From an uncultured Planctomycetia bacterium (GTDB lineage Bacteria; Omnitrophota; Gorgyraeia; Tantalellales; Tantalellaceae), in NCBI GenBank assembly GCA_964572255.1, contig CAZNEE010000001.1:459587-523586 (forward strand): DNA of 64,000 nucleotides, in the 5' to 3' direction. Positions 56,151 to 59,100 of this stretch are shown one piece after another (the first letter of the stretch is position 1; each line of letters opens with the position of its first letter). Made by a program: the position numbers and the translations under genes. A model generated the notes under the pieces. The model saw only the letters and a list, made by a program, of their open reading frames with translations, had not been told where the DNA came from and searched no databases.

Positions 56151-59100
56151 ATGGGAAAATATAAAAACAGGCATAATCTGCGACTTAGACTTATATCTAT
56201 GGTAGTGGTATGCCTGTTTTTTGCTAATAGCGTCTCATGGGCATACCAACCCGACGTGAGATCACCCGCCGCTAATAATACCCTGCAGGCACAACTGCTC
56301 TTTAAACCTATTCTTGATGCTGTTCAAAATGAGTTTAAAAATCAGGTGAGATTCGAGCTTAGAACGATCCTGGAGATGATAGAGGCAAACGAACCTCTTC
56401 AGAATATAAACGCGGCGCTCGATCATTCCCGCTCTGCTTCAAATTTCAAAAGCGGCCAGCGGAAACTGGATGTCGATCCGGAATGTATTGAACGCGATGA
56501 TTCCCTGGAGGTCAGGCTGGGTTTTTACCGCGCCTCCGAAGGTGGTCCTAAATTCCGCATGGTGTTTCCGCGCGCACCTGACGGAACCCGGGATATAGAT
56601 AAGGTCAAGATAGAAGAAATTATTTATGGCGCTTTGCCGGATCGCTTAGAGATAGAGGCGGCCGATAAAAAGCTTCAGCGCGTTAAAAGTAAAATCCAGA
56701 GCGGGGATGAGGTTAACGTGCTTTTTGTGTGTTCGGCGAATTTTCAAAGAAGTCCGTTCGCCGAAGTTATCGCCAAGTTTATAGCGGCGGATTCAGGACT
56801 TGAAAATGTCCATGTCAGTTCCTGCGGGACATACGCGTATTCGCAGGTCGCCTTTGATAAAAGATTGGTCGATATATTCCGGAAAAACAATCCGGGAGAG
56901 ATCGCCGAAGACATATTGTCTCAAAAATCCCCCCGAAGACGAGTTGATCGCGAAACGATCGAAAATGCCGATATAGTGATCGTTGGGGACAACACGGTAA
57001 GGGAAGACCTGGAGAAATTTTTCCCTGAGATAGCAGATGATGTAGCGAGAAAAACCGTTTATTTTACAGACCTTGATCCAAACTTAAGAGTAGAGTTCGG
57101 CCACCTGTTCCCCGATTTCAGCATGTGGGAAACCATTGTCAAGAAGAATGTCCAGGAGTATTACGATATCGTTTACAAAACTATACGCGAGGGTTTGTTC
57201 CAGGATGTATTTGACCGCCTCAGCCAGGCCGATCTTAAATACGGCCTTGTGCCCGGCAAACTGCCCAAAAAGCACCGCGCTTTCTACGAAACGGTCTACA
57301 ATATACTTTTTGAACACGATTTTAAAGACCCCAAAATGCACAAGGATGCCGAGCGCCTGGCCCGCACCATTACGATGATGAGGCCCGGTTCCCTGGAATT
57401 TATACATGAAACGGGAGTTATCAGCGAAAAGGAAAAAGATATTTTTCTTGAGAAAAAAACGCACGCTTTAAAGTTCCTTGGCGAAGAGGCTAAGCGTGAT
57501 CTTTCCCGCAGGCTCAGGCAATTGGTCGATTCTTATGGAAGGGATCTGGCGGGATCATTCAAAAAACATTACATGAAGCGTCTCGTTCCGCTCGATATTA
57601 TCGAACCGTTAGCACGCAAATACAAGACTTCCGTCTCGCACATACAAGTGATCATCAGGGACCGTCCGGATTTTCCGGCATGGCTTCCGATGGCCGCAAG
57701 CTTGGTAAAACAGTATGAAGAAAGATTGGGAGGGACGAATAACGCATGGGGGATCTTCATAAAAATAGGCATTGATGAGAAAAAAGCCGATAAATGGGTA
57801 GCGCAATATTTAAAGAGGGTCGAAGAAATACAGGATAAAGTAGGGGGACCCAGGAACGCAAGGTTTATAGTCAGAATGAAGGGCCTGGATGTAACTGACG
57901 AGTATATTGAAGACATTGCCGCCAAGGCCGATGAGATAAAGACCAGAGTAGGCAATTTTACGAACGCCATGCTGGTTATTATAGCTCAAGGCCTCGGAGA
58001 AAAAGAGGATGAAGAAGGGGTTTTGAGAGGGAAAGTGGATGCATGGATAGATAAGGCGGAGAAAAAACTTGAAGTTATCGAAAAAGTAGTAAGCGGAACG
58101 TCGGAAGAAGGCAGAAGGTCAAAGGCATGGCAGATCCTGATAATGTCGGATCTGGACAAAGTCGAGAGCTGGCTTGAAAACGCGGAAACCATCGTGAAGG
58201 AAATAGTAAAAAGTGAAGAATGCACGGAAGCCGAGGCCTGGAATCGCGTGATAGCCGAAGGCCCTAGAGTATTAGATCAGGCCGGCGAGGAAAGGAAAAA
58301 ATTCCACAAAATAGGAAGTAAAGATGTGAAAGTTATCGATGTGGACGAAGAAAAGGACATCGCAATAGTGAAAGACTCCGAAGGCGTTACCCACCAGGTT
58401 AACATGGAACACAAGGGACCCCTGGCGATAAAAACTTTGATAAGGATGTTCGAAGGGATGTTTGAATTAGATGAAAATTCAAGAAGGCTGATCATCTCTA
58501 TGCTGAAACTCATTGAAAGATCCCCGCCAGAGATCTACGTGTTTTCACGCATCATAGAGGATCTCATGGCTTTTTCTTCGCCCGAGGACAATATGATCGC
58601 GGTTTTTAAGAACCTTAAAAATAATCCCCTGCCGCTTTTTCATGAAGTATCCGAATATCTCATCGCCGACGGCCACATGAGGCTGGAGATAGAAGAAGGT
58701 CCGTTCGATATGCTTGTTATAAAGCGAAAAACACTCTTCGGACGTTTCCTGGACAAACTGGGAATGAAGAATAACCGTTTCGGATATAAAGAAATGGAAA
58801 GGATCTTCATTTCTACGGCAACAGCAGATTTTATCGAAAAGGAAAAATGGCATGACGGGTGGCGTGAAGATCCGCATTATCTTTTAAGGGTCCTTCAAAG
58901 AGAGGTCTTCGGATACAGGGATTATTCTTTCACGGAAGAACTCCGCCTTTATCAGGTCTCAGAAGACCTCGACAGCATATACGACACCGAGTTCACCATA
59001 GATGATATTATTGAAGAGGAGATCTGGCTGAGGAAAAGAGGGAAAGTCTCTTCCGGCGCGGAGGATCAGGGCGGTTTTATCGGCAAATGGCAGCCCCTGG

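Follow-up and report, generated by a model that had tools for sequence, protein, structure and literature searches.

A giant open reading frame with an embedded phosphatase-like module

We analyzed a 64,000-nucleotide stretch of contig CAZNEE010000001.1 (positions 459,587 to 523,586), referred to below as the window, and in particular the giant open reading frame (ORF) with which it ends. This ORF starts at an ATG at position 56151 on the forward strand and is still open at position 64000, giving at least 2,616 codons with no stop in the translation, which begins MGKYKNRHNLRLRL... / MGKYKNRHNLRLRLISMVVVCLFFANSVSWAYQP... from that ATG. An earlier sequence-only reading of the window had flagged positions 56709-57090 as a low-molecular-weight protein-tyrosine-phosphatase (LMW-PTP) or ArsC-like phosphate-binding loop (P-loop) near the N-terminus of a giant protein. 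The peptide that it quoted for this interval is an exact match to the forward-strand translation (EVNVLFVCSANFQRSPFAEVIAKF...ADIVIVGDN...YFTDLDPNLR), and it occupies amino acids (aa) 187-313 of the protein of at least 2,616 aa, in agreement with the N-terminal placement. The reverse strand of the same interval contains many stops. We show below that positions 56640-57245 encode a genuine LMW-PTP-fold domain in a divergent version, which extends beyond the flagged interval on both sides. The features that concern this domain are as follows.

56151..64000, + strand: giant ORF encoding an Omnitrophota-type modular protein, aa 1 to at least 2616; the window end cuts the ORF
56640..57245, + strand: LMW-PTP-fold module, aa ~164-365 (Pfam PF01451, AlphaFold2, Foldseek)
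56730..56753, + strand: P-loop C194-S-A-N197-F-Q-R200-S201, with the predicted nucleophilic Cys, phosphate-binding Arg and structural Asn and Ser
57075..57080, + strand: D309-P310 of 'TDLDPN', the earlier general-acid proposal, now likelier a helix-capping element
57111..57116, + strand: P321-D322 of 'HLFPDFSMWE', the best general-acid candidate (D322 at 57114-57116, just beyond the flagged interval)

The module has the LMW-PTP fold

The assignment to the LMW-PTPs, already proposed from the letters of the sequence, was confirmed at the level of the family profile. The Pfam model LMWPc (PF01451) matched the module with an E-value of 1.4e-11 and 45.2 bits, above its gathering score of 23.2, in an alignment that includes an intact C-X5-R-S P-loop and covers profile positions 1-106 of 144 only. 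No other Pfam or NCBIfam family was detected in the 2,616 aa that are visible. A phmmer search of the PDB sequences with the single module sequence returned LMW-PTPs only, with YwlE at the top (E 1.8e-5). When a profile of six related modules from giant proteins was used instead, YwlE was retrieved with an E-value of 1e-15 and other LMW-PTPs with values from 1e-14 to 1e-8, among them 2gi4 (2e-14) and the T. tengcongensis PTP (9e-14). Profile-profile comparison with 44 stand-alone LMW-PTPs by hhalign gave a probability of 99.8 and an E-value of 1.1e-27.

The homologues used here came from an exhaustive representative search and from a profile search. Word-indexed searches for homologues of aa 2-550 and of aa 174-343 gave no matches, and a metagenome scan with three module sequences brought up just a single contig, unrelated, on which two LMW-PTP genes of the ordinary kind lie in tandem. 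The profile search retrieved stand-alone LMW-PTPs only and none of the giant relatives.

Structure modeling gave a PTP-type fold. AlphaFold2 supplied with a 94-row alignment produced a model with a predicted local distance difference test score (pLDDT) of 92.7 and a predicted template-modeling score (pTM) of 0.88; 88 of these rows are canonical LMW-PTPs, and the fold result is partly circular because the alignment consists mostly of them, which counts against giving it full weight. The single-sequence model was poor (pLDDT 47.7) and had the same order of beta-strands and alpha-helices as the alignment-based one. In a Foldseek search with the alignment-based model, the best 50 PDB matches were all LMW-PTPs, with a probability of 1.0 and target-normalized TM-scores of 0.62-0.75. 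Both the model and these matches display the alpha/beta fold with a parallel sheet of four strands, in which the P-loop joins beta1 to alpha1. In the model, the elements follow one another as an extra N-terminal helix, beta1, the P-loop, alpha1, beta2, helices, beta3, alpha4 and beta4, after which come two short helices, a loop and a long C-terminal helix.

Conserved active-site residues and candidate general acids

The C-X5-R-(S/T) signature with Asn at the third position after the Cys (+3) is present in the module as C194-S-A-N197-F-Q-R200-S201. All four of C194, N197, R200 and S201 are invariant in the six related modules, whose overall identity is just 23-46 %, and the same Cys, Asn, Arg and Ser are kept in 120 of 120 stand-alone LMW-PTPs. 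The constancy of these four residues at such low identity argues for selection on the nucleophile and for a working active site. At the +4 and +5 positions the module has Phe and Gln, where the stand-alone enzymes usually have Ala, Thr or Ile and His or Cys.

The general acid had been sought in the 'TDLDPN' segment, as the source of the DP loop, and this proposal did not hold up well. Across the six related modules the column of D309 contains D/A/S/F/V/M, and in the AlphaFold2 model the residue sits between two short helices, where D309-P310 would more likely be a helix-capping element. The Pro-Asp pair at 321-322 is the better candidate. It is invariant in a three-sequence alignment and present in the four closest modules, its surroundings resemble the common 'VPDPY' context, and in a 94-sequence MAFFT alignment D322 falls in the invariant or near-invariant catalytic Asp column of 88 stand-alone LMW-PTPs. 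On these alignments we favor D322 over D309 as the candidate general acid.

The giant protein is a mosaic of modules

When aa 1-1200 were searched exhaustively, 242 relatives were obtained at E<=1e-3, many of them 2,000-7,700 aa long and the longest 7,703 aa. We looked up the source names of ten relatives; six were named, and five of these six are Candidatus Omnitrophota. The relatives have modules in common, in shuffled arrangements; these were counted with phmmer in the best 150 of the 242 relatives, to which the counts below refer. The following modules and repeats were delimited outside the LMW-PTP module.

56244..56639, + strand: N-terminal module A, conserved head domain of the giant-protein family, aa 32-163
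57246..58265, + strand: module C, family-specific and with no known homologue, aa 366-705
58266..59000, + strand: module D copy 1, with 'LFHEVSEYL' and 'HYLLRVLQRE' motifs, aa 706-950
59028..59660, + strand: module E, with 'FHELAH' (HExxH) and 'HYxxRxFQ' motifs, aa 960-1170
59766..61415, + strand: repeat array of ~40-90-aa units, aa 1206-1755 (chunked self-BLAST, E down to 6e-22)
63405..63857, + strand: module D copy 2, aa 2419-2569 (self-BLAST)

The leader together with head domain A (counted as aa 1-165) is found in 37 relatives, and the phmmer matches to module A nearly all begin within the first 15 residues, with one at residue 37. Module C (counted as aa 354-705) occurs in 29 relatives; where it occurs in relatives, it ends in ~36-aa repeats of the form 'RVGGxxNAWxIVxxQGLxKxDxW'. 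Module D occurs in 65 relatives, often with multiple copies per protein; its second copy in the window protein is 36-50 % identical to aa 774-935 (E 4e-15, self-BLAST). Module E is present in 35 relatives, and its F-H-E and H-Y..R.FQ residues are invariant in 12 sequences. Modules D and E share an invariant 'FHE' (HExxH or HExxE) and a 'HYxLRxxQ' motif and recur every 1,000-1,900 aa in the relatives, with four copies of module D in one of them (P0003) and three of module E in another (P0001). Both may serve a polyprotein as zincin-like units for processing or punctuation. The units of the repeat array take the form 'YWPxF...AGxNAGxLFxxGLPxLKE'.

No significant Pfam, NCBIfam or PDB match was obtained for modules A, C, D and E, the repeat array or the tail. 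A match to the TraG P-loop was below cutoff (E 0.002) and was dismissed as weak. The tail of the ORF (aa 1784-2616) had no relatives in a scan against the genome and metagenome contigs. The protein had previously been described as a giant repeat protein; it is indeed giant, and rather than a simple repeat protein it is a mosaic of modules with some internal repeats.

The LMW-PTP module itself is present in just five of the 150 relatives. Internal positions are also seen: it lies at residue 1473 in one giant (P0121), occurs twice in another, at residues 837 and 1900 (P0101), and in a third (P0131), whose C-terminus carries a HAD domain, lies at residue 389, flanked by an HD domain and a Ser/Thr kinase. 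In long modular proteins of the Omnitrophota type the LMW-PTP module is a rare, optional cassette. Another architecture, unusual as well, was seen outside the window in P0126, a 1,679-aa protein of an Elusimicrobiota metagenome-assembled genome (MAG): its N-terminal region is PEP/pyruvate-binding (PPDK-like), and behind it come about five LMW-PTP domains in tandem, whose CxGN P-loops are canonical or nearly so.

The leader and the predicted location of the module

The N-terminus of the giant protein carries a short leader.

56151..56243, + strand: signal-peptide-like leader MGKYKNRHNLRLRL ISMVVVCLFFA NSVSWA / YQP, aa 1-31

The leader consists of a basic n-region, a hydrophobic core of ~12 residues and the residues N-S-V-S-W-A before Y-Q-P, with S-x-A at the -3/-1 positions, and aa 14-32 form the only hydrophobic stretch in the visible 2,616 aa. 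With this layout, a cleavable Sec signal peptide is a better fit than a transmembrane anchor. The sequence 'VVCLFxxNTxxWAYP' stands at the N-terminus of 37 of the 150 best relatives, and the leader looks like a family-specific sorting or export signal. Over aa 1-60 (56151-56330) the consensus comprises a K/R-rich start and 'IAxxVVCLFxxNTxxWAYP(D/G)', then '..TLQVQSxFKPILD'. It has no Pfam or NCBIfam model, its conservation is far above that of an ordinary signal peptide, and the relatives that bear it range from fragments of less than 100 aa to a protein of 7,388 aa.

The phosphatase had been described as an extracellular head. Export is plausible because the leader resembles a Sec signal peptide and no further hydrophobic segment follows in the 2,616 aa, and the conservation of this export-type leader in 37 relatives is in keeping with that description. 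On these sequence features we put the chances that the module is exported slightly above even. Three considerations pull the other way. A relative with the same leader has kinase, HD and HAD domains before its first transmembrane segment, an arrangement that fits simple export poorly; a Cys phosphatase outside the cytoplasm would run a risk of oxidation; and export is judged here from the visible 2,616 aa of an ORF that continues downstream, which weakens the case for simple export.

The same observations bear on a possible, if doubtful, alternative, in which the module would have the same chemistry and face the cytoplasm, held by an uncleaved N-terminal membrane anchor, and would regulate the phospho-signaling of its own cell, paired with the kinase modules found elsewhere in such giants. 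In the relative P0131 the leader stands in one protein with HD, Ser/Thr-kinase and HAD domains, which depend on cytoplasmic cofactors; another relative (P0004) is annotated as a protein kinase, and a Cys enzyme would be safer in the cytoplasm. In a 2026 preprint (10.64898/2026.06.07.730766), the regulatory and metabolic Pfam content of the long Omnitrophota proteins is taken to be compatible with a membrane-anchored topology at the cytoplasmic face. However, a hydrophobic core of just ~12 residues followed by the polar S-x-A is signal-peptide-like and not anchor-like, and the basic residues N-terminal to the core predict that the C-terminal bulk of the protein lies outside.

Gene surroundings

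The giant ORF is preceded by a tRNA cluster and then by an AT-rich spacer, in which one promoter-like sequence was noted.

55421-55978: cluster of tRNA-Thr(TGT), tRNA-Tyr(GTA) and tRNA-Gly(TCC), directly upstream of the giant gene
56055..56083, + strand: sigma-70-like promoter match, TTGACA-17-TAACAT with TG, a consensus match only, in the AT-rich spacer upstream of the ORF

The scan for sigma-70-like consensus sequences found 3 matches against 1.7 expected. A 127-aa ORF at 55509-55892, which overlaps the tRNA-Tyr gene and lies between tRNAs, is probably spurious. Just upstream of the tRNA cluster and the giant gene lies a block encoding two proteins of the exosortase-sorted PEP-CTERM kind and a toxin of the AbiEii type, which a partner ORF of 195 aa overlaps (51779-52420, 52968-53681 and 54131-55374). 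Short metagenome contigs with this PEP-CTERM/AbiEii block all stop soon after AbiEii and before the giant gene, which suggests that assemblies break there.

Apart from the two PEP-CTERM proteins and the AbiEii toxin, the remainder of the window encodes bacterial housekeeping proteins (ArgRS, Mfd, SurA, PdxA, GatA/B, PolA, Rho, RF1, FtsH, FolP, CdaA and PdxJ). The FtsH of the window is 76 % and 61 % identical to those of two MAGs labelled uncultured Planctomycetia and 64 % identical to that of an Omnitrophota single-cell genome. Taken with the source names of the giant relatives, this makes an origin of the window in the Omnitrophota very probable.

Catalytic competence and proposed function

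With moderate confidence we read the segment as a real, probably active Cys-dependent LMW-PTP-fold module, an optional cassette in long Omnitrophota-type proteins that is most likely exported. Besides the points on location given above, several features of the active site weigh against this reading. The +2 residue of the P-loop is Ala196, whereas Gly occupies this position in 119 of 120 stand-alone LMW-PTPs, and across the six giant-protein modules it is A/L/L/M/A/G. The local alignments to known LMW-PTPs by Pfam, PDB profiles and hhalign all end after beta4, as do the Pfam LMWPc alignments of all four relatives, and the C-terminal 65 aa of the module searched alone against the PDB returned nothing relevant. 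On both grounds the active site is less than the almost textbook example for which it had been taken. A canonical D-P dipeptide is absent from any securely aligned position. The alignment of the candidate-acid region is unstable between MAFFT and global hhalign: when the modules were added singly to the stand-alone alignment with MAFFT --add, the residues in the Asp column were inconsistent, and global hhalign, at low confidence, placed P321 on the canonical Pro and hence F320 on the catalytic Asp column. No stable sequence-based assignment of the general acid was obtained from local hhalign, global hhalign, MAFFT --add or the C-terminal PDB search. The module is best described as a divergent LMW-PTP subfamily in which the P-loop Gly is lost, xPDx stands for DP and extra helices are present.

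These departures would also be expected of a pseudo-phosphatase or phosphate-binding module that keeps the fold and the anion-binding P-loop, has lost efficient catalysis through an altered P-loop and the want of a general acid, and serves as a binding or scaffolding unit. The replacement of the near-invariant Gly by Ala, Leu or Met, a DP motif that is absent or unalignable, and a C-terminal third with no detectable similarity to any solved LMW-PTP all point in that direction. Pseudo-phosphatases typically lose the Cys. In the six modules, by contrast, the P-loop Cys, Asn, Arg and Ser have stayed invariant amid general divergence, and a Pro-Asp is conserved in the right loop, so that we think this explanation improbable.

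Quite improbable, too, is a protein arginine phosphatase of the YwlE type, acting on phosphoarginine rather than phosphotyrosine. The Bacillus and Geobacillus YwlE proteins are the top PDB sequence matches both to the single sequence and to the module profile. Their lead over ordinary LMW-PTPs such as 2gi4 and the T. tengcongensis PTP is narrow, however, and the best Foldseek match is Thermus TT1001 instead of YwlE. The P-loop of YwlE reads C-T-G-N-T-C-R-S, and the Thr at +4 confers specificity for phosphoarginine; this position is Phe198 in the window module and A/A/A/Y/K in the related modules, and the YwlE-type assignment was rejected on this defining residue. An arsenate reductase of the LMW-PTP-fold ArsC type, the other half of the original suggestion, shares the CX5R loop; the profile matched ArsC structures weakly (E 2e-4 to 1e-2), and NCBIfam TIGR02689 gave a match below threshold, to the P-loop only. 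This assignment is effectively refuted, however, since C194 and C225 are the only cysteines of the module, with no Cys after beta3 and the two redox-relay cysteines missing, the TIGR02689 score is 13.3 bits against a cutoff of 157.6, the ArsC structures score ~10 orders of magnitude worse than LMW-PTPs in the profile search, and a thioredoxin- or glutaredoxin-dependent reductase would make no sense in a giant exported protein.

For the active, exported phosphatase that we favor, a catalytic cycle can be proposed with chemistry taken from the LMW-PTP family. The thiolate of Cys194, at the N-terminus of helix alpha1, would attack the substrate phosphate, which the backbone amides of the P-loop and Arg200 would hold in place, while Asn197 and Ser201 would maintain the shape of the loop. 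An acid in the loop after beta4, most likely Asp322 and not Asp309, would protonate the leaving group, and the thiophosphate intermediate would then be hydrolyzed by water. The module would be exported with the rest of the protein and act outside the cytoplasm, in the periplasm, at the cell surface or on a partner cell. As the default assumption, its substrate would be phosphotyrosine on proteins, because the aromatic Phe198 stands where arginine phosphatases have Thr in their P-loop and because the aromatic residues Y228, Y230, F323 and W326 flank the predicted pocket.

The host- or partner-modifying function that the sequence-only reading had suggested is speculation, as is a role in modifying prey. 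In one such scheme, which we regard as a long shot, a predatory or epibiotic Omnitrophota cell would make the protein as a polyprotein with multiple effectors. Export would rely on the conserved leader 'VVCLFxxNTxxWAYP', modules D and E, which recur and carry HExxH/HExxE, would act as zincin-like units of self-processing or punctuation, and the LMW-PTP would be one interchangeable payload, removing phosphate from tyrosine-phosphorylated targets in the partner cell, such as those of BY-kinase-controlled envelope or polysaccharide synthesis. The logic would be similar to that of the MARTX-type modular toxins.

The LMW-PTP module is the sole recognizable enzyme in 2,616 aa of otherwise dark sequence, and, as a small expressible domain with a simple assay, it offers an experimental handle on the long Omnitrophota proteins. 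An active and exported module would represent a phosphatase payload of a putative nanobacterium, predatory or symbiotic, on a giant protein that is secreted or lies at the surface. Activity without the P-loop Gly and the canonical DP would widen the sequence definition of the LMW-PTPs. Should neither be the case, it would be merely another divergent PF01451 domain.

Comparison with known systems

The closest known systems are the LMW-PTPs themselves (PF01451; Thermus TT1001, 2cwd; B. subtilis YfkJ, 4etm; V. cholerae LMWPTP, 4lrq; and the bovine and human enzymes), which have the same fold as the window module, with TM-scores up to 0.75. They share with it a VLFVC-x-x-N-x-x-RSP P-loop after beta1, an S-x-G after beta2 and an Asp-containing beta3. 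The window module differs from them in the change of the +2 Gly to Ala and of the second P-loop Cys or His to Gln, in the extra N-terminal helix and the two extra short helices after beta4, and in having 'xPDx' for 'DPY/F'. Stand-alone LMW-PTPs are ~150 aa long, whereas the window module forms part of a protein with at least 2,616 aa.

Among the solved structures, YwlE (4kk3, 4pic, 1zgg) is the best sequence match and has a similar length of the loop from beta4 to the acid. Its specificity Thr is replaced by Phe in the window module, which also lacks the second P-loop Cys, and the similarity ends before the D118-P-F loop of YwlE.

The Foldseek matches to the window module also include MPtpA of M. 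tuberculosis (1u2p) and PtpA of S. aureus (3rof). Both are virulence factors, secreted LMW-PTP effectors that act outside the producing cell, and as such they provide a precedent for the idea that the module modifies a partner. Unlike the window module, a cassette in a giant protein with a Sec-type leader, both are small and stand alone, and their CxGN and DP motifs are canonical.

Giant genes have been described before from the phylum Omnitrophota (West-Roberts et al., 2023, bioRxiv 10.1101/2023.11.21.568195; 2026 preprint, 10.64898/2026.06.07.730766). An LMW-PTP domain is mentioned neither in the former nor in the latter, including one supplementary file of the 2026 preprint. The described classes, the Archaeovorin and dockerin types, are characterized by SecA_DEAD, C39 peptidase, dockerin/TSP3, numerous transmembrane helices and lengths of >30,000 aa; the window protein shows none of these hallmarks over its visible 2,616 aa, and its ORF runs past the window. 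According to the 2026 catalogue, 94 % of long Omnitrophota proteins have a signal peptide or transmembrane segments (10.64898/2026.06.07.730766). The window protein resembles the long and giant proteins of this phylum in its probable origin, its great length, its largely unannotatable sequence, its mosaic construction and its N-terminus, where the signal peptide of those proteins has its counterpart in the signal-peptide-like leader.

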